Shown piece after piece: positions 10,817-45,578 of a stretch of DNA of 64,000 bases. Below the pieces are notes generated by a model, which saw only the letters and a list, made by a program, of their open reading frames with translations, searched no databases and was not told the origin of the DNA. This DNA is from Deltaproteobacteria bacterium (GTDB taxonomy: Bacteria > Desulfobacterota > Desulfobulbia > Desulfobulbales > SURF-16), in contig JAJRUT010000077.1 in NCBI GenBank assembly GCA_024277655.1, positions 3,867 through 67,866 of the forward strand, in the 5' to 3' direction. Numbering within the stretch: the first letter of the stretch is position 1; each line of letters opens with the position of its first letter. The position numbers and the translations under genes were made by a program.

Positions 10817-10835
10817 AATCTTACTATTGGTTCCA

Positions 10836-10932: not shown

Positions 10933-10939
10933 TATTTCT

Positions 10940-16869: not shown

Positions 16870-17000
16870 ATTGCCAGGGTGACGGCTAGAGGGTGAAGGG
16901 TGAAGATGCCTGTTGGCATTATATCTTTCATCCTTTTTTTATCTGTGCAACCTTGTTGCTCCGGTTGCTGTTTTGTAGCACTCGGTCAGGTGGAATTCCC

Positions 17001-18241: not shown

Positions 18242-19394
18242 CGTCTGGCCCCGTTTGTTGACCGGGGAAACCCGTTTTCAGCCCATCTCTTTGCCCGGTT
18301 TTGACACCTTTGTAAATCGTATAGGCGGTGAGGTTGATTCCGCCGATCTTGCAGATGCTAATCCTGCCCTTTCCCGTCACGCACAACTGGCCCATATTGC
18401 TGCTGCCGAGGCTGTTTCTGATAGTGGACTTCTTGCTGATAATTATTATACCCCTGATGATATCGGTGTCTTTGCCGGTGTTGGCGCGGCGGGGATGCTT
18501 GAGGCTGAGGACTGGCTTGCCAACCGTGATGGTACGGGGCGTCATTTTCCATCGGTAAGACTGCACGGTTATCCTGCCTCATCCCTTGCAGACTCACTCT
18601 GTGCTGAATATGGGTTGGCCGGATCAAAACTTTCGGTGGCCACCGCCTGTTCGTCCAGTTTGACAGCGCTTGGCCTCGGATTTGATCATATTCGCCATGG
18701 CCGGGTGAAGGCGGCAGTTGTCCTTGGTGGCGAGGGGCTCAGTCGCTTGACCTACGGTGGTTTTCATGCCCTGCGCTCCATTGCCCCGCAAAAATGCCAA
18801 CCCTTTGATCAAAATCGTCTGGGTATCTTTCTGGGCGAGGGTGGAGGATGTCTTATTCTTGAGGAGTATGACGCGGCGGTGGCGCGTGGGGCGAAAATTT
18901 ACTGCGAGGTGAGCGGTTGGGGACTTAGTTCCGACGGCTATCATATGACTGCGCCGGAACCGGATGGCAAGGGGGCGGTACAGGCTATGGAGATAGCGTT
19001 GCACCAATCCGGTCTTATTCCTGCCGATATCGGCTATATCAACCTGCACGGCACCGGCACCATCCATAACGATCTGGCCGAGACAAACGGCGTCAAGGCT
19101 GTGTTTAAGGAGCATGCCCGGAAGATTTTACTATCTTCAACAAAAGCCATGACGGGCCATTGTCTGGGGGCGGCAGGAGCCATTGAATCTGTATTTACGG
19201 TGCTGGCACTTCACCACGAGTATTGCCCGCAAACGGCATCTTTGTACACGCCTGATCCGGCCTGTGACCTGAATTATCTACCCCGCGCCTCACAGCCCTG
19301 CCAGGGTGTGCGCCACATGATGAATAACGTTCTGGCCTTTGGTGGCAATAATGTTGCCGTGGTGTTTTCCAGGATGGGGGGGCTTCATGGCTGA
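18180..19394 (+). CDS. Beta-ketoacyl-ACP synthase (KS, FabF-like)
   Basis: MSKVVVTGLG. Active-site ATACSSS. HGTGT and GHCLGAAG His motifs. Confidence 0.9.
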   Translation: MSKVVVTGLGIICCLGKNVHNVWPRLLTGETRFQPISLPGFDTFVNRIGGEVDSADLADANPALSRHAQLAHIAAAEAVSDSGLLADNYYTPDDIGVFAGVGAAGMLEAEDWLANRDGTGRHFPSVRLHGYPASSLADSLCAEYGLAGSKLSVATACSSSLTALGLGFDHIRHGRVKAAVVLGGEGLSRLTYGGFHALRSIAPQKCQPFDQNRLGIFLGEGGGCLILEEYDAAVARGAKIYCEVSGWGLSSDGYHMTAPEPDGKGAVQAMEIALHQSGLIPADIGYINLHGTGTIHNDLAETNGVKAVFKEHARKILLSSTKAMTGHCLGAAGAIESVFTVLALHHEYCPQTASLYTPDPACDLNYLPRASQPCQGVRHMMNNVLAFGGNNVAVVFSRMGGLHG

Positions 19395-20556
19395 TTCGGT
19401 GTATATCTCCGGGGTGTCCTGTCTGAGTTCCTGCGGTCTGACAACGGTGGATCTGCTGAACGCTATGCAGGGTTTGCCCCAGTGGCCTGGGACAATTCAG
19501 GTTGGCAGGGGCAAACACGATGTCAGCTACGGTGCGCTTTGTGATTTCAGCAAACCCCTGGCCCGCTTTGTTAAACCACTCAAGCGTCGAAAGCTCAGTC
19601 GGTTGTCGCGCCTGGCGGTGACTGCTGCCGGACTTGCCCTGGAGGATGCCGGTCTGGCGAAACCGGATCCTGACTGTGGTGTCGTTTTAGGCACGGCTTT
19701 TGGCTCGACATCCCAGTCGGAACTCTTTTATCTGGATATGCTTAAAGTCGGCGCAGTGAAGGGGAATCCCGGTCTGTTTCCAGAGACGGTGCCAAACAGT
19801 CCTGCCGGGCAGGTGTCGCTTGCCTTTGGGATGCGTGGCCCCAGCACCACGATCTGTCAGCAATCCCTCTCCTCTGAACTTGGTTTAATGACCGCCTTTG
19901 ATCTTATTGCCGATGGTAAGGCGCAGCAGGTGATGGTGATCGGGGTGGAGGAGATGAGTGGTGGTTTGCTCTCCGGTTTATGGAGTTGTGGAGGTCTGCA
20001 GGATGCAGGTTGTGGCGTCAGTCGGCCCCTGAGAAAACGCATGGTTGTTGGTGAGGCGGTGGTGGCAATGCTTCTTGAGTCTTCAGCGGCTTTAGCCCGG
20101 CGTAAGAAGGCAGCTCTGGCTAAGCTTATCTCTGTGCATGCCGCGGGTTCGGCGCGGTGGCCGGCAGCGTATACCGATATTGCCAGATCTGTGCAGCGGG
20201 TGGCTACTTTAACCAAGGTAAATGGTGTTGATTGTGTGATTCCCTCAGGCTCGTTTATTCAGGATGTTGATCAGCAGCATTTAAATACCCTGTTGCAGTT
20301 TTTAGCCAAAGAGACGCCCATGCTGGTTCCTGAATATCATACCGGTGCCCTCTTTGGGGCTGGATTGATTAAACAGGCACTTGGGGTTGCCCTTTTGAAT
20401 CTAGACAACTTTATGGCAAGAGGGGTGGGGTCCTGGGTCGATATGCACTATGATTCCCTGTACCAAGAAAGATTTTCTAAAATATCAAATGTTTACACTT
20501 CAGCCATTACAGCCGGTGGTGGTTGTGCCGGCACAGTCTTACAGCGGATTTCTTAA
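19387..20556 (+). CDS. KS-like partner subunit (chain-length-factor-like)
   Basis: Thiolase-fold-like (TTICQQSLSS aligns with the KS Cys region), but the HGTGT and GHxxGAAG His motifs are not recognisable. RRKLSRLSRL motif is shared with the second half of 37293-39425. The ATG at 19387 overlaps the KS stop (ATGGCTGA). Confidence 0.65.
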   Translation: MADSVYISGVSCLSSCGLTTVDLLNAMQGLPQWPGTIQVGRGKHDVSYGALCDFSKPLARFVKPLKRRKLSRLSRLAVTAAGLALEDAGLAKPDPDCGVVLGTAFGSTSQSELFYLDMLKVGAVKGNPGLFPETVPNSPAGQVSLAFGMRGPSTTICQQSLSSELGLMTAFDLIADGKAQQVMVIGVEEMSGGLLSGLWSCGGLQDAGCGVSRPLRKRMVVGEAVVAMLLESSAALARRKKAALAKLISVHAAGSARWPAAYTDIARSVQRVATLTKVNGVDCVIPSGSFIQDVDQQHLNTLLQFLAKETPMLVPEYHTGALFGAGLIKQALGVALLNLDNFMARGVGSWVDMHYDSLYQERFSKISNVYTSAITAGGGCAGTVLQRIS

Positions 20557-21918
20557 ATGCGGGTATTGCTTGTATCGTTAAATAATGAGCTTTTACCCGA
20601 ACCGGCCTTTCCCCTAGGGCTGGCCATTATTGCCGGTTCCCTTGCCGGAACGGGTCATGGGTATAAGCTTGTTGATCTCTGTTTCACCCCTCCTGAACGT
20701 CTCTTTGCCATGGCACAAGAGTATAATCCTGATGTTATCGGCCTTTCCCTCAGAAATGTCGATAATGTCGCCTATCCAGATACATTGACCTACATTCCCT
20801 ATTACCAGGAGGTTGTTGCCGGGTTGCGGAAAAGTACAACATGTCCCATTATCCTTGGAGGGCCAGGTTACTCCCTGTTTCCCAAGGAACTTCTGGAGGT
20901 GCTTGACTGTGAGTACGGGGTTAGGGGTAGTGGTGAAAAGCTGTTTCCGGAGTTGCTTTGCGCCATCCATGCTCATGATAAGCCACCTGATTCTCAGGGT
21001 ATTTATAGTCTGATTGATGGGGTGGGACGTTGTGGCACGGTAAAATCTGAGGTCATCCAGTCTCGACCAGATCATAGCCAGTTTGATATCCCGGCCTATA
21101 ATCAGGCGGGCGGGATGGTTAATGTGCAGACCAAACGGGGCTGCGCCTTTACCTGTATTTATTGTTCATACCCCGTTCTTGAAGGCAGGGTTCCTGTCAC
21201 CAGACCGATCCCGGAAGTGGTTGATGAATTACGGTTGCACGCGGAGCAGGGGGTGGAGGAGGTCTACTTTGTTGACTCCCTCTTTAATCATCCGGTTGCC
21301 TATGCCAAAGATCTCTGTCGCGCCCTGATTGCCGCAAATCTCCCTTTGAAGTGGACCTGTTACGCCGCGCCCTATCTCTTTGATCAGGAAATTGCTGATC
21401 TTTTCGCTGCAAGTGGTTGCCTTGGCGTTGAATTTGGTACTGATTGTCTGTCGGAACCCATGCTTAAAAGTATGGGCAAGGTGTTTTCTGTAAAAGACGT
21501 GCAGGATGCCAGTGACCATTGCCGTAAAGCTGGTCTTGCCTTTTGCCATGCTCTGCTTCTTGGTGGGCCTGGGGAAACATGGGATACGGTTCAGGAAACG
21601 GTGGATAATGCCACAGCAACGGAGCCAACCGCAGTTATTTTTATGACAGGCTTGAGGATTATTCCCAATACAAAACTCTATGATATTAGTCTCAATGAAG
21701 GTGTTGTTACTCCTGAAACAAATATGCTTGAACCCCAGTTTTATCTCTCCAAGGCCTTGACCGATCTGACTCAAAATGTAAATAAGTTGTCACGTATTCA
21801 CAAGACCTGGATTTTTCCCGGTCATTCCATCAGATGCTCTGTGCATCTTGCAGATTATTTACGTAAACGAGGCGCACGCGGACCATTATGGTTACACATG
21901 GCAAAGAAAAACCTGTAA
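20557..21918 (+). CDS. B12-binding domain radical SAM protein (453 aa, distinct subtype)
   Basis: TKRGCAFTCIYCSY. N-terminal MRVLLVSLN...VIGLSLRN...ILGGPGYS. Confidence 0.8.
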   Translation: MRVLLVSLNNELLPEPAFPLGLAIIAGSLAGTGHGYKLVDLCFTPPERLFAMAQEYNPDVIGLSLRNVDNVAYPDTLTYIPYYQEVVAGLRKSTTCPIILGGPGYSLFPKELLEVLDCEYGVRGSGEKLFPELLCAIHAHDKPPDSQGIYSLIDGVGRCGTVKSEVIQSRPDHSQFDIPAYNQAGGMVNVQTKRGCAFTCIYCSYPVLEGRVPVTRPIPEVVDELRLHAEQGVEEVYFVDSLFNHPVAYAKDLCRALIAANLPLKWTCYAAPYLFDQEIADLFAASGCLGVEFGTDCLSEPMLKSMGKVFSVKDVQDASDHCRKAGLAFCHALLLGGPGETWDTVQETVDNATATEPTAVIFMTGLRIIPNTKLYDISLNEGVVTPETNMLEPQFYLSKALTDLTQNVNKLSRIHKTWIFPGHSIRCSVHLADYLRKRGARGPLWLHMAKKNL

Positions 21919-22757
21919 CATGTCCGGTTTGTGGTGCAGCTCGGCCACCATTTTTCTACATGGAAAATGGCTACGACTATTATAAATGTGAGGCGTGTTC
22001 CCTGCTCTTTCTCTATCCCGTGCCAACTCAGGAGAATTTGCATGACCATTATCAGGAGTATCTGCCGGTGGACCCCAAGCTTGTTGATGCTTGGGGGTAT
22101 GAGATGGAACCGGTTATTGCCAGTTCCGTTCATTTTTTAGCCAGTCAATGTGCAGTTCCGGGCAGGCTTCTTGACATTGGCTGCGGTTATGGATTTTTCC
22201 TTGAGGCTATGCAGGTTTGCGGTTGGGAGGTGGAGGGTATTGAGTTGTCAAAACCTGCTGCTGATATTGCTAGATCTAAAAAATGTGGACTGATTCATGC
22301 CCGCGCCGTTGAAGAGATGCACGATATGGCCCCCTTTGATGTGATCACCATGTTCTATGTTATCGAGCATGTCGCCGATCCGCTGGCGATCCTAAAAGCT
22401 GTACGCAGGCTGCTTAAGCCAAACGGTATCTTGGTGCTCCGTTACCCAAATACCAGTCCCCTGTTGGCCTTTTCCCGGACTCTTGGCCGCAAACTTGCCC
22501 TGATGCAGGCACCATCTCATCTTTATGACTACGCTGGTGACTCCATGCAGCGGATTATGGTGGAGGCTGGATATGGTTCCATTCAGACCACCATTGATGC
22601 CAACACCCGTTCCCCTCATCCTGTGAAACGTTTTATCTCCTGCAAGATGGGTAAGGTGCCCGTGTGGCTTGCCCGCCTTTCAAAGAATAGACTCCTGTTT
22701 CCAGGTTATAGTAGGGTGACCTATGGCGCGGTGCAAGAGGGCCGTTTCAGGCTGTAG
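21888..22757 (+). CDS. Class I SAM-dependent methyltransferase with N-terminal zinc ribbon
   Basis: CPVCG...CEAC, then motif I LLDIGCGYGFF. Confidence 0.75.
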   Translation: MVTHGKEKPVTCPVCGAARPPFFYMENGYDYYKCEACSLLFLYPVPTQENLHDHYQEYLPVDPKLVDAWGYEMEPVIASSVHFLASQCAVPGRLLDIGCGYGFFLEAMQVCGWEVEGIELSKPAADIARSKKCGLIHARAVEEMHDMAPFDVITMFYVIEHVADPLAILKAVRRLLKPNGILVLRYPNTSPLLAFSRTLGRKLALMQAPSHLYDYAGDSMQRIMVEAGYGSIQTTIDANTRSPHPVKRFISCKMGKVPVWLARLSKNRLLFPGYSRVTYGAVQEGRFRL

Positions 22758-25819: not shown

Positions 25820-25821
25820 TC

Positions 25822-26607: not shown

Positions 26608-26610
26608 GCA

Positions 26611-35854: not shown

Positions 35855-36535
35855 ATGATAAGACCACGAATCCCGGAAACCTGTGAAGTAGAGACCGATA
35901 CCATCGGCGTGTTTTCCCGTGTTGCGGGTTGGACGGGCTATGGTGCGGCATGGCGGGTGCGGGGGATTATGGCTGAGCCTTTTTATGATGGAGAGCTGAT
36001 TGTTGATGTGGGAACCGGGCCTGGTACCATTCCCCTGCATCTGCAAAAGATGTTTCCAGGTGCTAGCTTCCATGGTCTTGATCTTGGTATGCCCATGCTT
36101 GCCAAGGCAAGGCATCACTCCCGGCAAATGGCAGTGAATTTGCCTATGATCTGCGCTGATGGTACATCATTGCCCTTTAAGGATAGTTCCCTTGATTCTA
36201 TTATCTCCTTTTTCTGTTTGCACCATATTAATGATCCCGGTCTTTTTCTAAAGGAGATTGATCGGGTTCTTAAAGATGATGGTAAACTGCTTATTCTTGA
36301 TTTTAAACGGGATATCCCCGCCATTTTAGATCGGTTGATGGATCTGTTTTGGAGACTTGGTTTTATTTTTAGTTCCGGCAAAAATGGTCTTAAAGAATCA
36401 ATCGATTCTGCCTGGGCCAAGGCGGAGATTGACGAGGCCATCAAGGCCTATAACTTATCGCGTTTTTTGGTTCATGAGACCCGCACCGAGCTACTGGTAA
36501 CTGCGGGACTAAAGAAGTTTCATGGAGATTTATAG
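35855..36535 (+). CDS. Class I SAM-dependent methyltransferase
   Basis: Motif I VDVGTGPGTIPL. Post-I LDLG. ...LLILDF. Confidence 0.7.
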   Translation: MIRPRIPETCEVETDTIGVFSRVAGWTGYGAAWRVRGIMAEPFYDGELIVDVGTGPGTIPLHLQKMFPGASFHGLDLGMPMLAKARHHSRQMAVNLPMICADGTSLPFKDSSLDSIISFFCLHHINDPGLFLKEIDRVLKDDGKLLILDFKRDIPAILDRLMDLFWRLGFIFSSGKNGLKESIDSAWAKAEIDEAIKAYNLSRFLVHETRTELLVTAGLKKFHGDL

Positions 36536-37186
36536 ATGAAATATTTTATGTCATGGGTTCTTGCCTTGCTCGTGTTGTCCCAGGCTCCTGTTGTTCTGGC
36601 AGCTGAACGGCAAATTGACGGGGCTGAGGCGGAGGCGCTTCTTTTGCGGATTAAAGAGAGTCAGGTCACGATTACGACCATCATTGGTTCTTTCAGTGAA
36701 GAGCGGATGATCAAAACCATGCCGGTGCCGTTAATCTTCACAGGTAAGGTTTATGCGAGACCACCTGAGTTTTTATTTCTCTCCTACGAGGAGCCTATCC
36801 AGCATATTATGAAGGTCACCGGTGATACGGTGCTGTTTTATGTTGTCGACTCGGCCACCGCCGATCAGATTAATTTGCAAAATGTGGCTGAGGGTGGGGC
36901 ACCGCCAAATCTCTTTGGTTGGGATCCCAGCGATTTTAAGGGTAAAATCCTTGAAACGGCCACTGGGTATATGCTGTATAATCCAGAGGTTAAGGCCGGG
37001 GGGCGGGAAATACGGATTACCCTGGATAAAGAAACCCTGATGGTTCAGGCCCTTATCATGCAAGAGCCGGGTGGGGATGTAACCAAGATTATAATGAAAG
37101 ATTTACAGGTGAATGGTGAAATTCCGGATGCCATTTTAAACTATACCCTGCCGGATGGAGTAAATATCAATAAGATGGGCCAGTAA
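36536..37186 (+). CDS. LolA-like periplasmic lipid/lipoprotein carrier
   Basis: Signal peptide ...VVLAAE. About 190-aa mature size. The GKVYARPPEFLFLSYEEPIQHIMKVTGDTVLFYV pattern resembles the LolA family. The start abuts the upstream stop (TAGATG). Confidence 0.5.
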   Translation: MKYFMSWVLALLVLSQAPVVLAAERQIDGAEAEALLLRIKESQVTITTIIGSFSEERMIKTMPVPLIFTGKVYARPPEFLFLSYEEPIQHIMKVTGDTVLFYVVDSATADQINLQNVAEGGAPPNLFGWDPSDFKGKILETATGYMLYNPEVKAGGREIRITLDKETLMVQALIMQEPGGDVTKIIMKDLQVNGEIPDAILNYTLPDGVNINKMGQ

Positions 37187-37292: not shown

Positions 37293-39425
37293 ATGACTGA
37301 GTCGTATAAAATAGCCATTACAGGTATGGGTATCATTACTCCGGCAGGGTGCGGAGTTGCCCCCTTTGCCAAAGCTCTTTTTGCCGGAGACCATCAATTT
37401 TCCCCAATCCGGGGTTTTGCTGCCAATCTCCACCGTACCCAAGTTGGCGCTGAAATTACCCGTTGCGACTATTCTGCCAATCGTCTTGATATGTCTACTT
37501 TGGCAAGGACAGATCTCTTCGCTCTTGAGGCTGCCAGTCAGGCCTTGACTGATGCCGGTCTTCTCGATGCTGACAGGTTATGTCTTGCCCCGCATATGGG
37601 AGTTGTCTGTGGCACGGCGGGTGGTGCTATTTCTGGTCTTGAAACCTTTTTTTCTAATAGGTTTCACGGCAGGTCATGTGAGGCAAAATCACTGTTAAAC
37701 TCATTTTGCCTGTCGGCTCTTGCCACTAATATTGCCAGGGAGTTTCAGATTGAAGGCCCCAGAACCACCCTTGCCACCGTTTGTTCTTCAAGTGGCCTGG
37801 CGTTGGCTAGGGGTTTTGAGATGCTCCTAACCGATAAGACGGTGGATCATGTTCTGGTGGTCGCCGCCGAGAGTCTGTCGGAGGTAACCCATGGCGGGTT
37901 TAACGCCCTGCGCTCCGTTGCCCCTGAACTATGCCAACCCTTTGATGTGAACAGAAAGGGCTTGATCCTTGGTGAGGCAGGGTGTGCGTTGGTCTTAAGC
38001 CGTGTTGGCCCATCTAAATATGGTTATCTGGCAGGCTATGGACTCACCACCGATCTTTATCATTTTACCGCCCCTGATCCGCAGGGTGGAGCCATTGCCA
38101 CTGCCATCAGCAAGGGGTTATCCCATGCGGGAATTACGGCTTTAGATGTTGATTATATTAATTGCCATGGTACAGCGACGCCAAAGAATGATGCGGCTGA
38201 AGCCAGGGGCATAGGTGCTGTGTTTAAAGACCGGCGTATTCCGGTTTCTTCGACAAAATCCATGTTTGGTCATACCCTTGGGGCGGCAAGTTTGCTTGAA
38301 GCCATTGCCACACTCCTCGGTATGGCAAAGGAGTTGCTACCTCCTTCCGCGAATCTTGATACCCCTGATGATTTTGAGTTGGATGTTGTTACCAGGGCAA
38401 GACCATGTAAGATAAAAGCGGCCCTATCTAACTCCTTTGCCTTTGGCGGTTCCGATATCTCCCTCGTCTTGACCACGGATCATTCACCAAGGCATAGCTT
38501 TCGGGAGCCAATAACAGAGGCGGTGATCACCGGTATTGGTGTTGTCTCGCCGCTCGGGATTGGCTGTGATACTTTTAAGACCAATGTTGCAGGTGGGGAG
38601 TCTGGTCTGCAGTCCATGGCTCTGTTTGGTTCTGAGTTTACGATGCCGGGTGGTTTGGTTGATATGACCGAGGTGCGGAGCCATATCCCCTTGAAGCGCC
38701 GACGCAGGTTGAATCGCCTTGGCAGTTTTCTCAGCGTTGCCGTGGCTGAGGCCTTAAGTCAGGCGGGTCTTGTTGATGATGTCTCAGGTCTGGCCATGGT
38801 ATATGGGTCGGCCTTTGGTTGTTCGTCCAATGTTCATCAGTTTTACTCGAAAATACTAGAGGGTGGGGCTGCCACCGCTTCCCCCCAGGAATTTATGTTT
38901 TCCGTAACCAATGCCCCGGTTGCCCTTGTGGCCCAGCACCTGCAAATTCCCGGTGAGGTGTGGGTGCTGGTGCAAGATGAGGTCTCCTTTGAGGCAGCTC
39001 TCCATTATGGTGCCATGCTCATTGAAACCGGTAAGGAACAACGGGTGATTGTCGCTGCCGCCGATGAGCTTAGTGACTCAATCCTGGCCATTCATCAGGG
39101 CCTTGGCTTTTTTGCTGGAGATTATGTGCTGGGTGAGGGGTGTGTGGCTCTGGTTCTTGAAAATAGGTATATGGCAGTTGGGCGGCAAGCGCAAATTATA
39201 GGGAAAATCAAACTATGCGAAATGAGTCAGGATCCAAGCTGTGGGCCGGTTGATTTTAGTATGCATGGCCTGGTAGGCAATGACTTTCATTCCCGTATCG
39301 GTCAGTCCGGTGTGGTGGGTGGTTTAACCCTTGTGGCCGATATCCTTGCTGGCAACCACAATGACATTAAGGTCGTCACTCGTAGTCGTGGCGGTATCAA
39401 TGCTACAACCATGGTGTCACGGTAG
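37293..39425 (+). CDS. Fused beta-ketoacyl synthase + KS-like (CLF-like) didomain protein
   Basis: 710 aa. The N-terminal half has ATVCSSS, CHGTATPKND and GHTLGAAS. The C-terminal half (from about aa 410, AVITGIGVVSPLG) is thiolase-like with RRRRLNRLGS but lacks the His motifs. Confidence 0.8.
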   Translation: MTESYKIAITGMGIITPAGCGVAPFAKALFAGDHQFSPIRGFAANLHRTQVGAEITRCDYSANRLDMSTLARTDLFALEAASQALTDAGLLDADRLCLAPHMGVVCGTAGGAISGLETFFSNRFHGRSCEAKSLLNSFCLSALATNIAREFQIEGPRTTLATVCSSSGLALARGFEMLLTDKTVDHVLVVAAESLSEVTHGGFNALRSVAPELCQPFDVNRKGLILGEAGCALVLSRVGPSKYGYLAGYGLTTDLYHFTAPDPQGGAIATAISKGLSHAGITALDVDYINCHGTATPKNDAAEARGIGAVFKDRRIPVSSTKSMFGHTLGAASLLEAIATLLGMAKELLPPSANLDTPDDFELDVVTRARPCKIKAALSNSFAFGGSDISLVLTTDHSPRHSFREPITEAVITGIGVVSPLGIGCDTFKTNVAGGESGLQSMALFGSEFTMPGGLVDMTEVRSHIPLKRRRRLNRLGSFLSVAVAEALSQAGLVDDVSGLAMVYGSAFGCSSNVHQFYSKILEGGAATASPQEFMFSVTNAPVALVAQHLQIPGEVWVLVQDEVSFEAALHYGAMLIETGKEQRVIVAAADELSDSILAIHQGLGFFAGDYVLGEGCVALVLENRYMAVGRQAQIIGKIKLCEMSQDPSCGPVDFSMHGLVGNDFHSRIGQSGVVGGLTLVADILAGNHNDIKVVTRSRGGINATTMVSR

Positions 39426-39427
39426 TT

Positions 39428-40903
39428 ATGGCTGATTTTGACGCTGTTGTTATCGGTTCAGGCCTTGGCGGACTTACCACTGCCGCATTGCTTGTAAAGC
39501 AGGGGCTAAAGGTATGTCTGCTCGAAAAGAATAACAGGCTTGGCGGTTATGCGGTTAATTACACGGCTCGTGGTCATCGCTTTGATGTGGCGACCCAGGC
39601 CCTTGGGGGGTGTGGTGAGGGCGGGATTGTCTCGGCCCTTCTTAGAGACCTTGGTCTTTATAATAAGCTTACCTTTCTTCCCTGTGAACCGGCGCGAATC
39701 TATCATTTCCCCGACTCACCAGCCCCCTTTATTCAGCATGGGTTCCTCAAGGAGCAACGGAACCTGCTATGTTCACTCTACCCCGATCAGCGGCTGGCGA
39801 TAGAAACCTGTTTTGAGGTTTTTACCACGCTCTTTGCTGAGTTGCAGGACATTGCTGTGGCTGATACCAGCCCGTTGTTTGGTTTTAGTAAAAAATACCC
39901 GGCCCTTGCCCGCTATGGACGGCTGACGGTTAAGGAATTTTTTGACTCGTTACACCTCCCTGAGAAATTACAGATAAGAATTGGTGCCAGGTCTGGTTAT
40001 TGTATGCTCCCCCTGTCTGATTTGTCACTGGTGGCTTTTGCCTGTACTGAAATGAGTTACGGGGGCGGGGCATGGATGGTGCGGGGTGGCGTGGGGCAAC
40101 TGGTTACGGTGCTTGGCGATTATCTTCGTGAAGACAGGGTTGAGATTTACAGGAAAAGCAGGGTGGAGAGACTTTTATTTGCCGGTGACAAGGTTGTTGG
40201 CGTAGAGACACGGCAGGGCAAAAAAATCACCGGCAAAGCGGTTGTCATGGCTGTGGATGGCTCGGGAATTTTGGCGCAATCAGAGGAACCCTGTGCGCCA
40301 CTTCTGGCAAAATATAAAAAAATGGCATGCACTGGTTCCTATCTTGTCAGTTATTACCAGGTTCCGCTGGATTGTGTCGAGAATATGCAGGCCAATATTG
40401 AAGTCAGGCTTCCCAGGCAAATCATTGCCGAGACAACAAAAATAGATGTATATTACCTCCTTATTCCGTCCTTGGTTGATAAGGATTCAGCACCGGAGGG
40501 TAAGCATTCATTTTGTGTTTCAGTGCCCCTTCGGGCGGGTGTTATGCCGGATCATCATGAGCGTCTTGCCATTCGCATGCGCCTTGAGCAACTGGTGGTG
40601 GAGTTATATCCCCGGTTGGCAGGTAAGTTAAGTTTTTTGTTTACACTTGGGCCAGATCACTTTAAGTCCATGACAGGTAACAGTAATGGCGCGGCCTACG
40701 GTTTCTCTCAGACCGTTAGTCAATCCGGGATCTACCGTTTAGGCAATAATCCCAGGATTGCTGGACTTTATCTGGCCGGACACTGGACCATGCCCGGTGG
40801 TGGGATTGCCGGGGTGATGACCTCTGGGAAATTATGCGCGCGAGCTGTGATTAATGATGTTTGTCACCTTGAAAAGTTAACCTCTAAAAGCATGCCATCC
40901 TAA
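39428..40903 (+). CDS. FAD-dependent oxidoreductase, phytoene desaturase (CrtI)/amine oxidase-like
   Basis: VVIGSGLGGLTTAALLVKQGLKVCLLEKNNRLGG. C-terminal LAGHWTMPGGGIAGV. Paralog of 3119-4597. Confidence 0.75.
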   Translation: MADFDAVVIGSGLGGLTTAALLVKQGLKVCLLEKNNRLGGYAVNYTARGHRFDVATQALGGCGEGGIVSALLRDLGLYNKLTFLPCEPARIYHFPDSPAPFIQHGFLKEQRNLLCSLYPDQRLAIETCFEVFTTLFAELQDIAVADTSPLFGFSKKYPALARYGRLTVKEFFDSLHLPEKLQIRIGARSGYCMLPLSDLSLVAFACTEMSYGGGAWMVRGGVGQLVTVLGDYLREDRVEIYRKSRVERLLFAGDKVVGVETRQGKKITGKAVVMAVDGSGILAQSEEPCAPLLAKYKKMACTGSYLVSYYQVPLDCVENMQANIEVRLPRQIIAETTKIDVYYLLIPSLVDKDSAPEGKHSFCVSVPLRAGVMPDHHERLAIRMRLEQLVVELYPRLAGKLSFLFTLGPDHFKSMTGNSNGAAYGFSQTVSQSGIYRLGNNPRIAGLYLAGHWTMPGGGIAGVMTSGKLCARAVINDVCHLEKLTSKSMPS

Positions 40904-40908
40904 CAATT

Positions 40909-42447
40909 ATGACAAAATCAAAAACAAAATTTCTTCTGGTTGATCCCCCCCATCGTATCTGGGATATCTTAAAGGCGTGGATTCCGTCCCCCGGTTGTCT
41001 GCAACTTGCCGCCTATTTAGAGGATTATTTCAGCATAGATTTCATGGACTGCACCCTTAATAAAAGTCCATGGCATGATCTTGAAAAGAAACTTCGCGCT
41101 GATCGGCCTGATGTTGTGGGTATTTCCATTGGTTGTACCTATTTTACCTATGATGGTTATAACGCCGCTTCACTAGTGCGTGATATCCTGCCTGATGCCG
41201 TGATTATTGTTGGTGGGGCGCATCCTACCCTAAATGCTGATGAGTGTTTTGCTGATTGTCCTGAGATTGACTTTATCTGCATGGGGGAGGGGGAGTACAC
41301 CACCCGGGAGTTTCTTGAGAATTTTGCTAAGGGCAACCCTGACTACTCGCATATCAAGGGTCTTGCCTACAAAGATGAACAGGGCAATCTTGTTATTAAC
41401 GAAAAACGGCCCCTAATTGAAGATCTTGACTCCCTGCCCATCCCGGCCTACCACCTGGTTGATATGGAACATCCTTATATTGGTCTGCCCTCTGAGGGTA
41501 AGCGGGCGTTCTTGGTGAACTTTGCCAGGGGCTGCGGTTTCCGCTGTAAATTTTGTTCAGAATCTGTTTTTTGGGAGCGGAAATGGCGGGGGCGTTGTCC
41601 TGAGCTGATTGGTGATGAGCTTGAACTCTTGAAAAAGACCTATAATCGCGACACCTTCTATGTCGGGGATAACATCTTTAACTTTACCCGTGAACGCTCC
41701 AAAGGGTTTATCAGCGAGATGAAGAAGCGCGACTTAAAGCAGAATTTCTGGTTGCAGTCCCGGGCCGATATTGTCGTGCGGGATGCTGATCTTATGGCCG
41801 GCTTTAAGGAGGCAGGGGTTTATCAGTTTATGATTGGCGTGGAGTACTCTAGTCAGGAGGTTCTAAATACCCTGGATAAGGATATCTCCATGCAGACGGT
41901 TGAAAAGGCCATGCAGATCCTCCAGAAGCATCAGTTTATGATTATGGCAACACTCATGATTGGTCACTGGGACGAGACAGATGAGGATCGCCAGAAGCTG
42001 TTTGATTTTTGTACCAAATATGTCAATCATTTTGGCCTCAATGTCGTGACACCACTGCCTGGGACGGAGTTTCACACCGAGATGAAGGCCCTGGGGCGGG
42101 TGGAAAACGTTGATTACCGTAAATTCGATTATATTCAGGCCATCATGCCCACAAAGGAGATTGATGATCTTGATAAAATCACCGAACTGCACCTTGGCAT
42201 GATCCGCAAATTCTATTGGCGACCCATTGAGCTGTGGCGCACGTTCTTTTCAAAGAATAAAATCCTCCGCCATCACCACCGCTACTTTATGAAGTACGGT
42301 TTTGAAGTGGCCCAGCACGAGATTTTTGGCAAACCACTCTGGGTGCAGGAAAACTTCCAGACCTTTGAATCCTTCCTGCGTGAGCGCGGAGTGCCTATTA
42401 ATGGTAGTTTTGCCGGGTATGAGCCGGATGAGAGTGTGGAAATTTAA
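40909..42447 (+). CDS. B12-binding domain radical SAM protein (512 aa; paralog of 673-2136)
   Basis: ARGCGFRCKFCSE. FLLVDPPHRIW...SPG...VVGISIG...IVGGAHPT. Its C-terminal region aligns with that of 673-2136. Confidence 0.85.
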   Translation: MTKSKTKFLLVDPPHRIWDILKAWIPSPGCLQLAAYLEDYFSIDFMDCTLNKSPWHDLEKKLRADRPDVVGISIGCTYFTYDGYNAASLVRDILPDAVIIVGGAHPTLNADECFADCPEIDFICMGEGEYTTREFLENFAKGNPDYSHIKGLAYKDEQGNLVINEKRPLIEDLDSLPIPAYHLVDMEHPYIGLPSEGKRAFLVNFARGCGFRCKFCSESVFWERKWRGRCPELIGDELELLKKTYNRDTFYVGDNIFNFTRERSKGFISEMKKRDLKQNFWLQSRADIVVRDADLMAGFKEAGVYQFMIGVEYSSQEVLNTLDKDISMQTVEKAMQILQKHQFMIMATLMIGHWDETDEDRQKLFDFCTKYVNHFGLNVVTPLPGTEFHTEMKALGRVENVDYRKFDYIQAIMPTKEIDDLDKITELHLGMIRKFYWRPIELWRTFFSKNKILRHHHRYFMKYGFEVAQHEIFGKPLWVQENFQTFESFLRERGVPINGSFAGYEPDESVEI

Positions 42448-42472
42448 GGGGAACAGGGCGCGACTGCGGCGT

Positions 42473-42853
42473 TTATGCCCTTGATTCACATAACTGCCCA
42501 TACACCCGCTTCCACTCTTGCACGGCAATGAGTGTCTGGCCCCGGCGGAGAAAAACCCTTAGCTCGCAGGCCACCATGGCGGGTTGCCCTTTATCATTAT
42601 GGTAATCCACCTGGATCACGTAAAAGATGGATGAGTAGGTCTTCTTTTGAAAGGCGCGAAGGTTTGTAATCTGTGCCAGGGGGATGTTGAGGTTGATGGC
42701 GGCTGTCTTTTTAGTTGCCGGGATTTTGAGGGCAAATCCTGCCGGTGACAGGGTGGCTTTACCTAGTTGTTGGCGTTCGGGTAAACCAAGGGTCGAGGCG
42801 TGGAAAATTATTTTTGCGCAGATTGTGTTTTCAGGTTTTGAGAATAGGCCCAT
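42473..42853 (-). CDS. Hypothetical protein (126 aa)
   Basis: Clean ORF with no motif I recognise. Divergent from the rSAM gene at 43025. Confidence 0.35.
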   Translation of the reverse strand: MGLFSKPENTICAKIIFHASTLGLPERQQLGKATLSPAGFALKIPATKKTAAINLNIPLAQITNLRAFQKKTYSSIFYVIQVDYHNDKGQPAMVACELRVFLRRGQTLIAVQEWKRVYGQLCESRA

Positions 42854-42880
42854 ATTTAACCTTTTAGTTTATAAAAAAGC

Positions 42881-43007: not shown

Positions 43008-43024
43008 GATAAAAAAAGTAAAAA

Positions 43025-44413
43025 ATGCAAAGAAACAAAAAGAAAATACTCTTTATTTCACCAGCCAGAAACAGGGGGCCGGATGAAGACTTCATCTTCA
43101 AACTCAGCTTTCTTAATCTCCCCTATCTTGCCGGGGTTACACCGGATCATTATGACGTTGAGATTATAGACGAAGAACGCAATGTTATCAACTTTGATGA
43201 TGATGTCTGGCTTGTGGCGTTAACGGCTCAAACCCCGATTGCCCCTAGAGCCTATGAGGTTGCGGGTGAATTTCGCAGGCGGGGGGTGACGGTTATTATG
43301 GGCGGGGTGCATGCCTCGACCTTGCCAGATGAGGCGCTTTGCCATGTGGATTCGGTTATTATTGGTGAGGGTGAATTTGTCTGGCGCCAGATTCTTGATG
43401 ACCTGGAGGCCGACAGTCTGCAAGAACGTTACTCCAGCGGCACCACCCATTCCCTGGCTGGTCTGGACTGGCCCCGGCGTGATCTGTTGAATCCAAAACA
43501 TTACATTCCTCTGACCCTGATGGAGACCACACGGGGTTGTCCCCATCACTGTGATTTCTGTGGGGTGTCCAAGTTCTTTGGTCATAAATATCGTAAACGC
43601 CCCCTGTCTGAGGTGAAGGCGGAACTTGAATCATTGTTTGGTGGTGGCTTTCGCCATGCTTTCTCCCGTTTTCTGGCCAAAATGGGGCTGGATATGCCCT
43701 ATTTTATCGAACGCCGGCTTATTTATTTCATTGATTCAAATTTTGCCGCCGATAAAAAATATGCCGTCAGCATCATGGAGGAGCTTAAAAAACTCGATGT
43801 GAAATGGTGGTGTCACGCCACGGTGGATATTGCCAGTGATCCCGATTTTCTTACGAAGATGAATGAATCAGGGTGCTTGGCGGTTAATGTCGGTTTTGAA
43901 TCTCTGTCGCCAGAAAATTTAAAATCCATGCATAAATCCTATGCCGCAAAGCACGATTATCCCAAGGCTATAAAGGCCTTTCACGATCATAATATCGGTG
44001 TGATGGGCACCTTTGTGGTGGGGTTTGATGGGGAGGACGCGTCAATCTTTCGCCGGGTCTTTGATTTTTCCATTGATAATCAGCTTGACTGGTCACTTAC
44101 CTTTATCAGAACCCCGTATCCCGGTACCACTATGTATAACAAGATGGAGGAGGAGGGGCGGATTACGGTGCGGGACTGGGAGAAGTATGACACCCTCCAC
44201 TGTGTGTTTGAGCCTGAGGGTATGTCGGTACTGGAGCTTGAAGATGGCTTGAAATCGTTATGGAAATACACCTTTTCCATGAGTTCAATCTATCGCCGGA
44301 TCATTAAGGGGCCACGGGTACATCCGTTGTTTTATCTAGGGATGAATATGCAGTTCTTGCAGATGGTCAGGAAGTGGCGGGTCAAGTATGATCCCTTCGT
44401 GGACAAAGGGTGA
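43025..44413 (+). CDS. B12-binding domain radical SAM protein (about 462-aa TTRGCP subtype)
   Basis: TTRGCPHHCDFCGV. LVALTAQT...IMGGVHAS. GFESL. Confidence 0.85.
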   Translation: MQRNKKKILFISPARNRGPDEDFIFKLSFLNLPYLAGVTPDHYDVEIIDEERNVINFDDDVWLVALTAQTPIAPRAYEVAGEFRRRGVTVIMGGVHASTLPDEALCHVDSVIIGEGEFVWRQILDDLEADSLQERYSSGTTHSLAGLDWPRRDLLNPKHYIPLTLMETTRGCPHHCDFCGVSKFFGHKYRKRPLSEVKAELESLFGGGFRHAFSRFLAKMGLDMPYFIERRLIYFIDSNFAADKKYAVSIMEELKKLDVKWWCHATVDIASDPDFLTKMNESGCLAVNVGFESLSPENLKSMHKSYAAKHDYPKAIKAFHDHNIGVMGTFVVGFDGEDASIFRRVFDFSIDNQLDWSLTFIRTPYPGTTMYNKMEEEGRITVRDWEKYDTLHCVFEPEGMSVLELEDGLKSLWKYTFSMSSIYRRIIKGPRVHPLFYLGMNMQFLQMVRKWRVKYDPFVDKG

Positions 44414-45578
44414 TGGCCCGTTGTTCAAGTAGAGCTGTAATCTGGGCGTAGATATTCTTATGCGTTTTCTTTAACTTGCCAATGGCAGTTCTGCCGTCAA
44501 GCTGAGGCCAGAGGGCAGGATCAGCCCCTGGCGGCCAGTGATCCAAAAGATGTACCGGGATATCCTCGTCCTGTAATTGGTAGTCGTCTGTGGTGTCAGC
44601 CCCTACCGAGTCATCACCGTAGTAGGCAAAGAGCGGTGCGGGGCTGCCATATTTAAACTCGTGGGCGTATCTGTAGGCCGAAAGACCGGCCTTTGTTCCT
44701 TCACCCAGGGCAACCACCGCCGAAAATGGTGGGCCGCCACAATCCCCGGCAATATATAACCCCTGATGATTCTGTTCTTGCAGATAACCGTTGGCTCTAG
44801 CCACTAGCCCTTGTGGCAGGGCGGGACGCTTGAGTTCCAGTGAGTTAAATTCAATGACGATACGGTCGGTTTCCAGACTGACAACTCCCTTCTCAGTTTG
44901 GATGTTTACCCTCATTTCTTTCGCATTTCTGTCAATATGATCCAGCGTTCCCCATATAGTATTTTCGTTACTTTGCTGTGTTTTTCCGTCAATAAGCAGG
45001 GTCGCCCCTGGGTTAATTTCAAGAATCATTTCTCTTAGTTGCAGGAGATGCACACCGCCAAGGATCAGCGGTTTTTTACTTGCGCTAAGCTCTTTTTTTA
45101 AGATGGCCCCGATATTGGCCCGGTTACCAAATGTTGCCGTGACGCCCTTTTGCCAGAACGAATGTATATTTCGTAAATCCAGCATTCCACAGGCCATAAT
45201 GACACTGATACTGCTAATGGTTGTGCCATCGGCAAGGGTTGTTATGAAGAGGGATTCTTTTTTGGCAACGGAGACAACCGTCTGGGTGATAATGGGGGCA
45301 GGGTAGGTTGCAAGATCCTTTTTGAGGCGTGCAACCAGTTCTCCGGCCGGAAATGCCAGGGATGGGCCGGTGAGAATAGAGTTACCAAGTTTTGCCAGCC
45401 CCCCCAAAGGGCCTGAGTTGACCAGAACCACCGAGAGTGGAATTGGATTCATGGTTTTCAGCCAGCGCAGTCGGGTTAAGGCCGCAAGACCAGCCGGGCC
45501 ACCGCCAACCACTAATACATCCACATCCCATGGTTGGCTCCCTGACCAGGGAAAAGTGTTTGTTGTGGGTTTAGCCAT
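44382..45578 (-). CDS. FAD/NAD(P)-binding oxidoreductase (thioredoxin-reductase-like fold) with C-terminal extension
   Basis: VLVVGGGPAGLAAL dinucleotide motif, later GLYIAGDCGG. No CxxC redox pair noticed. Confidence 0.55.
   Translation of the reverse strand: MAKPTTNTFPWSGSQPWDVDVLVVGGGPAGLAALTRLRWLKTMNPIPLSVVLVNSGPLGGLAKLGNSILTGPSLAFPAGELVARLKKDLATYPAPIITQTVVSVAKKESLFITTLADGTTISSISVIMACGMLDLRNIHSFWQKGVTATFGNRANIGAILKKELSASKKPLILGGVHLLQLREMILEINPGATLLIDGKTQQSNENTIWGTLDHIDRNAKEMRVNIQTEKGVVSLETDRIVIEFNSLELKRPALPQGLVARANGYLQEQNHQGLYIAGDCGGPPFSAVVALGEGTKAGLSAYRYAHEFKYGSPAPLFAYYGDDSVGADTTDDYQLQDEDIPVHLLDHWPPGADPALWPQLDGRTAIGKLKKTHKNIYAQITALLEQRAITLCPRRDHT

Follow-up and report, generated by a model that had tools for sequence, protein, structure and literature searches.

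Gene content of the window

The window, 64,000 nt from a Desulfobulbales-like MAG (contig JAJRUT010000077.1), carries a lipid gene cluster that spans about positions 673-45578 and is interrupted by unrelated genes. The full aryl-polyene-like type II FAS/PKS gene set is found there, comprising ACP, KS/CLF pairs, a FabA-like dehydratase (DH), SDR reductases (KR), a 4HBT thioesterase, GT2, an LpxL-type (LPLAT) acyltransferase, a LolA-like protein and an MMPL exporter. Window ORFs and their Pfam matches indicate that the cluster also encodes two CrtI-like flavoenzymes, a U32 protein and methyltransferases, and within about 45 kb there are eight B12-domain radical SAM enzymes (rSAMs) from at least four subfamilies plus one SPASM rSAM. 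The genes considered here are listed by position:

673..2136, minus strand: rSAM_B, BchE-like B12-binding-domain radical SAM enzyme, 487 aa from GTG (PF02310, PF04055)
2117..3028, minus strand: LpxL/LPLAT-type acyltransferase between CrtI_B and rSAM_B (PF03279 Lip_A_acyltrans, E 8e-33)
3119..4597, minus strand: CrtI_B, CrtI-family FAD oxidoreductase, 492 aa (PF01593, PF13450)
4590..6995, minus strand: MMPL/RND-type exporter, 5' of CrtI_B with an 8-nt overlap (PF03176; HAE3/HpnN-like below cut-off)
7113..8699, minus strand: rSAM_7113, a third B12-rSAM subfamily (TIGR04190-like), in the CrtI_B gene string
8880..10049, minus strand: U32-family protein at the head of the B-side gene string (PF01136)
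16606..22757, plus strand: core aryl-polyene-like operon of ACP, 4HBT thioesterase, GT2, KS, CLF (active-site Gln), rSAM_20557 and methyltransferase
35855..37186, plus strand: SAM methyltransferase (MT) and LolA-like protein, 5' of KS-CLF (syntenic in L002-L004, L023, L082, L091 and L092)
37293..39425, plus strand: KS-CLF, a fused ketosynthase and degenerate, truncated CLF-like domain, directly 5' of CrtI_A (Pfam ketoacyl-synt N, C and Ketoacyl-synt_2)
39428..40903, plus strand: CrtI_A, CrtI-family FAD oxidoreductase, 491 aa (PF01593, 93 bits; PF13450)
40909..42447, plus strand: rSAM_A, BchE-like B12-binding-domain radical SAM enzyme, 512 aa (PF02310, PF04055)
42473..42853, minus strand: small conserved protein, 126 aa, inverted in the window (no Pfam match)
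43025..44413, plus strand: rSAM_43025, B12-rSAM of the kuste3608/kuste2803 subfamily (PF04055, PF02310)
44382..45578, minus strand: Pyr_redox_2-type flavoprotein at the end of the A-side locus (48-50% identity in L001, L003 and L085)

The first-pass annotation had described a two-gene module, a CrtI-like gene followed by an rSAM gene, that occurs twice. Its four open reading frames lie where it had placed them and begin with the N-termini it quoted, and the LpxL-like gene it saw inserted in the second pair is indeed a PF03279 acyltransferase. For rSAM_B, the GTG at 2136, preceded by GGAG, fits the N-termini of homologues better than the TTG at 2205 that starts the longest ORF; starting here, rSAM_B shares 20 nt with the end of the LpxL-like gene, including its stop. 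On the A side the gap is 2 nt from KS-CLF to CrtI_A and 5 nt from CrtI_A to rSAM_A, and rSAM_43025 is split from CrtI_A by rSAM_A and the small inverted gene. KS-CLF keeps Cys/His/His in its N-terminal domain, while Glu replaces Cys in the C-terminal domain. ACP (16606) and the FabA-like gene (13379) both lie away from 37293-44413, an interval with no adjoining ACP or FabZ gene.

CrtI_A and CrtI_B resemble CrtI, CrtD and CrtISO in their fold, their N-terminal FAD dinucleotide-binding motif and their full-length HMM alignment, but unlike the CrtI carotenoid desaturases they score below family cut-offs and lack a carotenoid gene context. In both, PF01593 (Amino_oxidase) and PF13450 exceed their Pfam thresholds. 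TIGR02734 crtI_fam gave 128.9 bits for CrtI_A and 141.5 bits for CrtI_B (cut-off 238.1), and TIGR02730 carot_isom gave 109 bits for CrtI_A, also below cut-off. The AF2 model of CrtI_A (pLDDT 88) had 4REP (TM 0.78) and 4DGK CrtI as its best PDB folds. Both BchE-like enzymes have class B rSAM architecture, with a B12-binding domain (PF02310, 61.9 bits for rSAM_A and 67.5 for rSAM_B; cut-off 32.1) and an rSAM core with CxxxCxxC (PF04055, 52.1 and 50.6 bits; cut-off 29.5); C209, C213 and C216 of rSAM_A are invariant in our alignment (A1). BchE likewise joins a B12-binding domain to a radical SAM core and aligns with both almost end to end. TIGR02026 BchE was the best NCBIfam model, at 236.1 bits for rSAM_A and 245.9 bits for rSAM_B, below its cut-off of 481.35, and TIGR04072 rSAM_ladder_B12 gave 77.8 and 102.4 bits, below a cut-off of 360. 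Since the BchE score is half of the cut-off, chlorophyll genes are absent from the window and the relatives are Desulfobulbales-like, the substrate of rSAM_A and rSAM_B must differ from that of BchE. The best folds for the AF2 model of rSAM_A (pLDDT 88) were AprD4, MgmA, OxsB, CysS, TsrM and TokK, with AprD4 at the top; AprD4 carries a B12-like domain yet is not known to use cobalamin, so use of this cofactor by rSAM_A and rSAM_B cannot be assumed.

An isoprenoid substrate (carotenoid, hopanoid or tetrapyrrole-like), with CrtI-type desaturation, HpnR/HpnJ/BchE-type radical chemistry and an HpnN-like exporter, would fit the names of the best family models (crtI_fam, carot_isom, BchE, HpnR, HpnJ and HpnN-like), the closeness of the CrtI_A fold to carotenoid desaturases and one stand-alone homolog that adjoins hemC. 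We nevertheless regard this as very improbable. Every family-model score falls below its curated cut-off, translational linkage ties the genes to KS-CLF, LpxL and MMPL in FAS/PKS operons, and the 64-kb window, in which we looked for phytoene, squalene and hopene synthases, prenyltransferases, and crtB/crtE-type and bch genes, contains none for carotenoids, hopanoids or chlorophyll; an aryl-starter enzyme (ammonia lyase) was not seen in the window either. In addition kuste3336 and kuste3607, the CrtI-like proteins of Kuenenia, failed to replace CrtI in vivo (PMC4790861).

Conservation of the CrtI-rSAM neighbourhood

Orthologs of CrtI_A in Thermodesulfobacteriota are 42-76% identical to it, and 18 external loci had enough downstream sequence for a census. 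In all 18 the next gene is a co-oriented B12-rSAM, and KS-CLF is kept upstream in every locus that reaches that far. The subfamily of the next gene varies. In 10-11 of the 18 it is of the rSAM_43025 type, 63-67% identical to the window copy (L080, L081, L086, L087, L089-L093 and L095), in the order KSCLF-CrtI_A-rSAM_43025-type(-small protein) with no rSAM_A between. Only the lineage of the window (L001-L004, L082, L085) and L023 have the 512-aa type directly after CrtI_A, and there the order is MT-LolA-KSCLF-CrtI_A-rSAM_A-small-rSAM_43025(-PyrRedox). Homologs of the small protein (24-78% identity) adjoin rSAM_43025-type genes in L001-L003, L023, L080-L082, L085-L087, L091, L092 and L095. L080 and L081 are minimal units with no other rSAM nearby, and rSAM_A was not found in the available sequence of L080, L081 and L091; in L086, L087 and L089 it is convergent and downstream. 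Across these loci KS-CLF, CrtI_A, the rSAM_43025-type gene and the small protein make up the deep core of the A side, and rSAM_A appears to have entered later, between CrtI_A and rSAM_43025, in the window's lineage.

On the B side, orthologs of CrtI_B are 48-80% identical (for example in Dissulfurirhabdus thermomarina and Oceanidesulfovibrio indonesiensis). The triad of CrtI_B, LpxL and rSAM_B is found in seven loci, the window and six others with the LpxL gene in the same position (L064, L067, L073, L078, L118 and L121), and holds down to 48% CrtI_B identity; its carriers, as annotated, are MAGs of Desulfobulbaceae, Desulfurivibrionaceae and Desulfobacteraceae and the cultured D. thermomarina. 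CrtI_B and rSAM_B are always split by LpxL in loci carrying the B pair. MMPL also lies 5' of CrtI_B in L067, L078, L084, L118 and L121, with rSAM_7113 orthologs (66-83% identity) upstream of MMPL in L078, L118 and L121, and in L084 an rSAM_7113 homolog (43% identity) lies directly 3' of the CrtI_B-like gene. The position of the triad downstream of rSAM_7113 and MMPL suggests that it may act at the acyl-transfer and export stage.

We also surveyed the rSAM_A/B family, taking 64 genes from species-representative genomes. For 19 of them a CrtI-like gene of the same orientation lies at most 2.6 kb upstream, against a chance expectation below one, a rough figure that assumes few CrtI-like genes per genome and is drawn from phylogenetically non-independent loci. 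This supports the first-pass annotation. About half of the relatives of rSAM_A in this set come after a U32 gene and lack a CrtI neighbour (31 of the 64 have U32 before them), and 15 have neither U32 nor CrtI there; the contexts examined are non-lipid. U32 genes of 46-48% identity stand before rSAM_A-type genes at about 31-48 loci without lipid genes. Because the nearest relatives of rSAM_A beyond its own lineage (54-62% identity) also sit in non-lipid contexts, with U32 by shikimate genes or with hemC/housekeeping genes, the family is not lipid-specific. A CrtI-like gene lies one to two genes upstream in all early-branching members (Nitrospirota L058-L061; L052, L054, L063 and L077) and throughout the B clade, and for this reason the CrtI-rSAM association may be ancestral.

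With about a quarter of the cluster genes being B12-rSAMs, the adjacency could merely reflect operon shuffling, with the neighbours serving different steps or substrates. The crowding of rSAMs described above and the varied position and orientation of rSAM_A between loci are what such shuffling would give, as is the varied subfamily next to CrtI (A/B, 43025, 14268 and 7113 types); genes of the rSAM_14268 and rSAM_7113 types flank CrtI-like genes in other phyla too. Against this, a co-oriented B12-rSAM stands immediately 3' of CrtI_A in all 18 external loci, even in the minimal L080 and L081, and the B triad persists across several families at 48% CrtI_B identity, so that an absence of any specific coupling seems quite unlikely. 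The conserved couple proposed by the first-pass annotation therefore stands in part: a B12-rSAM regularly follows CrtI_A and the B triad is stable, but the A-side partner often belongs to another subfamily.

Paralogy and likely function of the two sets

Both members of the two sets are paralogous, as first proposed by eye. Over their full length CrtI_A and CrtI_B share 24% identity (122/518; 90.5 bits, E 1e-23), and rSAM_A and rSAM_B are 40% identical over 482 residues (E 3e-135). Domain content is the same within each pair. Among the eight B12-rSAMs of the window, rSAM_A and rSAM_B score highest against each other (389 bits versus at most 110 bits to the others). At the DNA level A and B resemble each other only in a handful of short stretches within the rSAM genes (at best 77% over 56 nt), indicating that the duplication is ancient and not a recent repeat. 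The A and B sets are thus ancient paralogs with similarity far beyond chance.

A dedicated unit of a CrtI-like enzyme and an approximately 500-aa B12-rSAM, desaturating and then methylating or cyclising, could have been duplicated en bloc to act at two positions or in two rounds. Such a history agrees with the joint paralogy and the mutual best match of the rSAMs, and with the possibly ancestral CrtI upstream of early rSAM branches and the B clade. The lower identity of the CrtI pair also agrees, since CrtI has the faster clock: orthologs are 52-66% identical for CrtI versus 88-94% for rSAM. However, kuste3336 and kuste3607 of Kuenenia (21-29%) are as close to CrtI_A and CrtI_B as these two are to each other, 46 of the 64 rSAM_A/B-family members have no CrtI upstream, and no CrtI-rSAM fusion protein was found among the 360 homologs listed. 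The other-subfamily rSAM in more than half of the CrtI_A loci and the constant LpxL gene within the B pair speak against it as well. NJ trees of CrtI and rSAM, built at 20-30% identity, have no clear branching order at depth and favour neither joint nor separate duplication of the two genes. We consider the en-bloc unit unlikely, if less so than the absence of coupling; the A and B sets do not appear to record the copying of one simple two-gene cassette, and the idea of a self-contained pair acting twice is not upheld. Nor is the desaturate-then-methylate sequence directly supported: besides the failed replacement of CrtI by the Kuenenia enzymes, the nearest rSAM model, BchE, matched below its cut-off, is non-methylating. 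All known non-methylating Cbl-rSAMs carry out ring formation or rearrangement (PMC13598231).

The explanation we favor, with a probability of roughly 0.6, is that both gene pairs are part of one large lipid-tailoring cluster built on an aryl-polyene-like FAS/PKS scaffold. The CrtI-like enzymes would be FAD-dependent dehydrogenases, isomerases or saturases working on an ACP- or lipid-bound acyl or polyene chain, and rSAM_A and rSAM_B would carry out radical C-H chemistry on that same chain under anoxic conditions. This chemistry might be BchE-like (oxidative ring closure, rearrangement or an oxygenation-type reaction), or else the C-methylation typical of most B12-rSAMs.

Comparison with known systems

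Aryl polyene (APE) clusters contain ACP, KS and CLF with active-site Gln, a FabA-like dehydratase, an SDR ketoreductase, a 4HBT thioesterase and GT2, together with an LPLAT/LpxL-type acyltransferase, a LolA-like protein, an MMPL exporter and a methyltransferase. The window has that whole set of genes. APE clusters are not known to have B12 radical SAM, CrtI-like or U32 genes.

In Kuenenia, the genes of the putative ladderane cluster, kuste3603-3608, encode amxACP, amxFabZ, FabF, a non-canonical FabF, a phytoene-dehydrogenase-like protein and a B12 radical SAM enzyme (PMC4790861). The A side parallels anammox kuste3605-3608 in the order of active KS, degenerate KS, CrtI-like and B12-rSAM, the roles in both being putative, but its kuste3608-subfamily member comes only after rSAM_A and the small gene. 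The order kuste3605/3606-3607-3608 is exact in L080 and L081, at identities (21-35%) too low to establish orthology. CrtI_A and CrtI_B are likewise too distant from kuste3336 and kuste3607 to be called orthologs. kuste3608 and kuste2803 group with the 43025/14268 subfamily (33-35% identity; 33% between rSAM_43025 and kuste3608) and not with rSAM_A/B (21-25%). Unlike in Kuenenia, the gene after CrtI_A here is BchE-like, and no amxACP or amxFabZ adjoins the A-side module. Elsewhere in the cluster, rSAM_20557 scores just below the TIGR04072 rSAM_ladder_B12 cut-off (337.9 bits versus 360) and is 38% identical to kuste3342, and the SPASM rSAM at 32331 is 27% identical to kuste3343. Kuenenia genes expressed in E. 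coli gave no new lipid, and in that host most of their protein products were insoluble (PMC4790861, PMC10139942).

A more speculative extension, which we hold to be improbable, is that the CrtI-like enzymes and flanking rSAMs (A/B and 43025 type) perform O2-independent desaturation followed by ring closure or rearrangement of acyl chains, and that the KS-CLF-CrtI-rSAM-small-protein operon of L080 and L081 is ancestral to anammox ladderane synthesis. If true, unusual cyclic or polyunsaturated membrane lipids would be expected in Desulfobulbales, Nitrospirota and other anaerobes, and ladderane biosynthesis could be studied in a cultivable and genetically simpler system. The closest relatives of the window are MAGs resembling Desulfobulbales, an order not known to make ladderanes.

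Desulfotalea psychrophila, of this same order, has FASII-type clusters (DP1853, DP1855, DP1860, DP2405 and DP2406) syntenic with Kuenenia (Rattray et al. 2009, PMC2649909), and by their published description these likewise hold several phytoene-dehydrogenase-like and SAM radical genes (PMC2649909). The same kind of cluster appears in earlier literature, which did not assign its product (PMC2649909, PMC10139942, PMC13459092, PMC9902471). Judged by its genes, the cluster in the window is an uncharacterised 'ladderane-type' lipid cluster of the kind already known from D. psychrophila and Kuenenia.

Two gene pairs in an aryl-polyene-like lipid cluster

Pfam and NCBIfam scans of the window outlined a multi-operon lipid cluster that spans ~673 to 45578 and is broken up by a cytochrome c3/FeS/NrfD module and a few housekeeping genes. 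The scaffold of this cluster is aryl-polyene-like and further includes KS, FabA-like dehydratase, SDR, LuxE, LuxC, LpxL-like, LolA-like, MMPL and methyltransferase genes. Added to it are eight B12-domain radical SAM (rSAM) genes (673, 7113, 14268, 20557, 29947, 33977, 40909 and 43025), one SPASM rSAM (32331), a U32 protein (8880) and two CrtI-like genes. The same scans found no carotenoid, hopanoid or chlorophyll genes in the window, and with all HMM scores below cut-off a role in these pathways is rejected. The features discussed here are as follows, the remaining B12-rSAMs being named by their start coordinate.

Features of the window
3119-4597, minus strand: CrtI_B, CrtI-like flavoenzyme of 492 aa (PF01593 and PF13450)
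between CrtI_B and rSAM_B: LpxL/LPLAT-type acyltransferase (PF03279)
2136 (preferred start) to 673 (end), minus strand: rSAM_B, B12-rSAM (PF02310 and PF04055)
16606-16869: ACP of the aryl-polyene-like scaffold, with 4HBT thioesterase and GT2
19339-20556: stand-alone CLF-like protein with Gln at the catalytic Cys position, like type II PKS chain-length factors
37293-39425: fused KS and degenerate CLF-like domain, N-terminal KS intact (Cys/His/His)
39428-40903, plus strand: CrtI_A, CrtI-like flavoenzyme of 491 aa (PF01593 and PF13450)
40909-42447, plus strand: rSAM_A, B12-rSAM of 512 aa (PF02310 and PF04055)
42473-42853, minus strand: small protein with no Pfam match, adjoining rSAM_43025-type genes across loci

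In the fused KS protein the C-terminal domain is truncated and Glu replaces the catalytic Cys. The LuxC-like acyl-CoA reductase (10940-12327, minus strand) is present as two overlapping ORFs, of which 11440-12327 covers Pfam LuxC profile positions 3-143 and 10940-11728 covers 153-401; the split is a frameshift and thus reflects a pseudogene or an assembly error. At 25349-27858 and 31538-32221 the lipid sub-clusters are interrupted by the membrane redox module (cytochrome c3, 4Fe-4S, NrfD) and by a gene for triosephosphate isomerase. The latter adjoins the SPASM rSAM in homologous locus L082 too, its position being kept. An Rfam scan of the whole window revealed no RNA elements, cobalamin riboswitch included, and the search of 35-46 kb for promoters and terminators gave a signal no higher than the shuffle background.

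The first-pass annotation had proposed that the CrtI-like and B12-rSAM genes form a duplicated two-gene functional unit acting twice. All four genes are present in the ORF lists, with a PF03279 acyltransferase inserted in the second pair as described, and the paralogy of both members is borne out: CrtI_A and CrtI_B share 24% identity in a full-length alignment (E 1e-23), rSAM_A and rSAM_B share 40% across 482 residues (E 3e-135), and the Pfam domains are identical within each pair. The two rSAMs are reciprocal best matches among the eight B12-rSAMs of the window (389 bits vs at most 110 to the others). On the A side the genes are tightly packed, with gaps of 2 nt from the ketosynthase gene to CrtI_A and 5 nt from CrtI_A to rSAM_A. 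The preferred start of rSAM_B at 2136, a GTG after GGAG that gives a 20-nt overlap with the LpxL stop, is favoured by homologue N-termini over the longest-ORF TTG at 2205.

At the DNA level the A and B regions share no more than short, weak matching patches; the duplication is therefore old, and a recent one is rejected. Among syntenic orthologs rSAM_A is 88-94% identical where CrtI_A is 52-66%; the rSAMs thus evolve far more slowly than the flavoenzymes, and the gap between 40% and 24% is compatible with co-duplication. CrtI_A and CrtI_B are no more similar to each other than either is to the Kuenenia stuttgartiensis paralogs, and rSAM_A is closer to U32-linked, Nitrospirota and L052-type genes than to rSAM_B. 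Neighbour-joining trees of both protein families gave clear shallow clades but no resolved deep nodes, and for this reason were not used to decide on joint duplication. No CrtI-rSAM fusion protein occurs among the 360 homologs listed. We treat A and B as ancient paralog sets with differing neighbourhood histories.

Neighbourhoods of the rSAM_A/B family and of CrtI_B

With alignment A1 of the A/B subfamily we searched the GTDB species, each represented by a single genome. Of the 401 relatives recovered, the best 79 loci were retained, and gene order was determined by tblastn and blastp with window proteins. The closest rSAM_A relatives (88-94% identity) come from Desulfurivibrionaceae and Desulfobulbaceae MAGs, and the best named homologs of the window generally from Desulfobulbaceae, Desulfurivibrionaceae and other Thermodesulfobacteriota MAGs. 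Upstream sequence of 2.6 kb or more was available for 64 family genes. Of these, 19 are preceded within that distance by a CrtI-like gene on the same strand, 31 immediately follow a U32 gene, and 15 show neither. If each genome is taken to hold only a few CrtI-like genes, a rough estimate of the CrtI adjacencies expected by chance is below one. Adjacency to a CrtI-like gene is therefore strongly enriched, yet it is not obligatory.

The CrtI-linked cases take several forms. In the window lineage (loci L001-L004) synteny is full (MT-LolA-KSCLF-CrtI_A-rSAM_A-small-rSAM_43025-PyrRedox), and L023 is a further CrtI-linked case. The B clade has CrtI_B-LpxL-rSAM_B (L064, L067, L073, L078), Nitrospirota have KS-KS-CrtI-4HBT-rSAM-rSAM-rSAM-rSAM-CrtI, and an unclassified group has 4HBT-CrtI(-CrtI)-rSAM. 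Family genes that follow U32 or stand alone share 54-62% identity with rSAM_A, above the value for rSAM_B, and lie in non-lipid surroundings: shikimate (L043), signalling (L046) or hemC/amidase/ValRS genes (L021). The family thus extends beyond lipid clusters. An rSAM_14268-type gene lies directly 5' of a CrtI-like gene in Nitrospirota and other lineages (L058-L061, L066, L096, L106, L107, L109, L114, L119), and CrtI/B12-rSAM adjacency thus covers at least four rSAM subfamilies.

The U32 gene followed by a BchE-like B12-rSAM forms a two-gene unit in about 31-48 Thermodesulfobacteriota genomes without lipid genes, among them Syntrophaceae and Syntrophorhabdus (L009-L062; for example L043 8634-11503, downstream of which chorismate synthase and EPSP synthase are encoded on the other strand). 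Their U32 proteins are 46-48% identical to that of the window (8880-10049), which, unlike these units with their BchE-like rSAM, precedes rSAM_7113. Downstream of the unit in L037, L041, L022, L038, L055 and L029, the other strand carries a distant CrtI-like gene (513-570 aa where measured, in four of them); the encoded proteins make up a separate clade, and L037 and L041 have an additional weak rSAM_A-like gene near the CrtI-like one. U32 proteins are members of an oxygen-independent hydroxylase family, and their recurrence is a hint that the same pathways may include anaerobic oxygenation.

The triad CrtI_B-LpxL-rSAM_B follows rSAM_7113 and MMPL and persists at CrtI_B identities as low as 48%, the lowest value being found in the cultured Dissulfurirhabdus thermomarina (L118) and in L121. 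Both of these have two DUF2229 genes and one BcrAD_BadFG gene between MMPL and CrtI_B (L118 4024-7008, L121 3985-7000). Such an ATPase set also lies near the CrtI_B homolog of L083 (15221-18235) and is missing from the window; it looks like an activator of 2-hydroxyacyl-CoA dehydratase or benzoyl-CoA reductase. The triad is not present in L083, L119 and L120. L084 has a CrtI homolog at 36-38% identity together with MMPL and an rSAM_7113-type gene, and a CrtI_B homolog of 49% identity occurs in the cultured Oceanidesulfovibrio indonesiensis.

The conserved partner of CrtI_A

CrtI_A loci were collected by homolog search, contig look-ups and a metagenome scan with a second alignment (A2), and were counted as orthologous from 42% identity upwards. 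In all 18 external ones that extend far enough downstream, the next gene is a co-oriented B12-rSAM, mostly of a subfamily other than that of rSAM_A: in ten loci (L080, L081, L086, L087, L089, L090, L091, L092, L093, L095) and the fragment L098 it is 63-67% identical to rSAM_43025, and a homolog of the small protein 42473-42853 usually comes after it. The window order with rSAM_A interposed occurs only in L001-L004, L023, L082 and L085, the small protein gene being inverted relative to the CrtI_A module in the window lineage. An rSAM_A-type gene lies convergent and further downstream in L086, L087 and L089, and none was seen in the sequence covered of L080 and L081.

Flanked by unrelated genes, L080 (Desulfobacterium sp. 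TRIP AH-1, 5624-11579) and L081 (5196-11774) carry a compact unit of an 800-aa KS-CLF fusion, a CrtI_A-type protein, a 452-aa rSAM_43025-type protein, a 115-aa homolog of the small protein and a ~110-aa protein. This four- or five-gene operon may be the system in its minimal form. Because CrtI_A-linked loci mostly carry an rSAM_43025-type gene next, the deep core consists of KS-CLF, CrtI_A, the rSAM_43025-type gene and the small protein, without rSAM_A. Overall, the reading as a duplicated functional couple is supported in part: CrtI-like and B12-rSAM genes are genuinely associated, but a discrete duplicated cassette is not supported.

Proposed chemistry and relation to ladderane-type clusters

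The AF2 model of rSAM_A (pLDDT 88) matches AprD4, MgmA, OxsB, CysS, TsrM and TokK, which confirms the predicted B12-domain rSAM fold; these matches do not discriminate chemistry. AprD4 is not known to contain cobalamin, so cobalamin use by rSAM_A is putative. The CrtI_A model (pLDDT 88) best matches the carotenoid desaturases 4REP (TM 0.78) and 4DGK, in agreement with sequence matches to the PDB. The CrtI and rSAM genes are co-oriented and closely spaced within FAS/PKS operons, and B12-domain rSAMs consistently flank CrtI-type genes. The CrtI-like flavoenzymes may dehydrogenate, isomerise or saturate an ACP- or lipid-bound chain, on which rSAM_A and rSAM_B would perform radical C-H functionalisation. 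Wedged between exporter and acyltransferase, the B set probably acts at chain transfer to the lipid anchor. The top NCBIfam match of both rSAMs is TIGR02026 (BchE; 236 bits for rSAM_A and 246 for rSAM_B, cut-off 481). While BchE is the nearest curated family, most B12-rSAMs are methylases, and oxidative or cyclising chemistry and methylation are thus both candidates. Known non-methylating Cbl-rSAMs are all ring-forming or rearranging (PMC13598231).

Rattray et al. 2009 described Kuenenia FASII genes with several SAM-radical enzymes and the phytoene-dehydrogenase-like Kuste3336 and Kuste3607, with two or three such dehydrogenase-like proteins in these clusters and a strikingly syntenic arrangement in Desulfotalea psychrophila (DP1860, DP2405, DP2406; PMC2649909). 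The putative ladderane operon kuste3603-3608 encodes ACP, FabZ, FabF, non-canonical FabF, a phytoene desaturase-like protein and a SAM radical enzyme; replacing crtI by kuste3336 or kuste3607 did not restore lycopene synthesis, and E. coli with Kuenenia genes gave no new lipid (PMC4790861). Reviews to 2026 list a phytoene-dehydrogenase-like enzyme and B12 radical SAM enzymes within FAS clusters as candidate ladderane genes, which resisted expression, come from organisms without a genetic system and are still unproven in function (PMC10139942, PMC13459092). AntiSMASH 'ladderane' clusters occur in Desulfobacterota and other phyla, their product not being known (PMC9902471). We found no post-2010 literature linking Desulfotalea to these clusters, and a 2025 anammox evolution paper does not treat the lipid genes.

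We compared the window with partial Kuenenia proteins (first ~400 residues, S6 Table of PMC4790861). Over these sequences kuste3608 and kuste2803 are 33-35% identical to rSAM_14268, rSAM_43025, rSAM_33977 and rSAM_29947 but just 21-25% identical to rSAM_A and rSAM_B, which places the latter in a BchE-like subfamily of their own. Similarly, kuste3342 shares 38% with rSAM_20557 (338 bits on TIGR04072 'rSAM_ladder_B12', cut-off 360), kuste3343 matches the SPASM rSAM, and kuste3336 and kuste3607 share 21-29% with CrtI_A and CrtI_B. The deep core equals kuste3605/3606-3607-3608 in architecture, and the conserved rSAM partner of CrtI_A is of the kuste3608-like subfamily, not the eye-catching BchE-like one.

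These comparisons narrow the targets for tests to the kuste3608-like partner, the isolated minimal units and the cultured triad carrier. The value of the finding lies in such minimal units and cultured carriers, which make lipidomics, knock-out and heterologous tests of an old question feasible outside anammox bacteria. The window system is of a kind already known, with its function not characterised, and largely repeats the synteny published in 2009. How ladderanes are made has long been unsolved, and the window repeats the gene logic of the candidate clusters in a relative of sulfate reducers.
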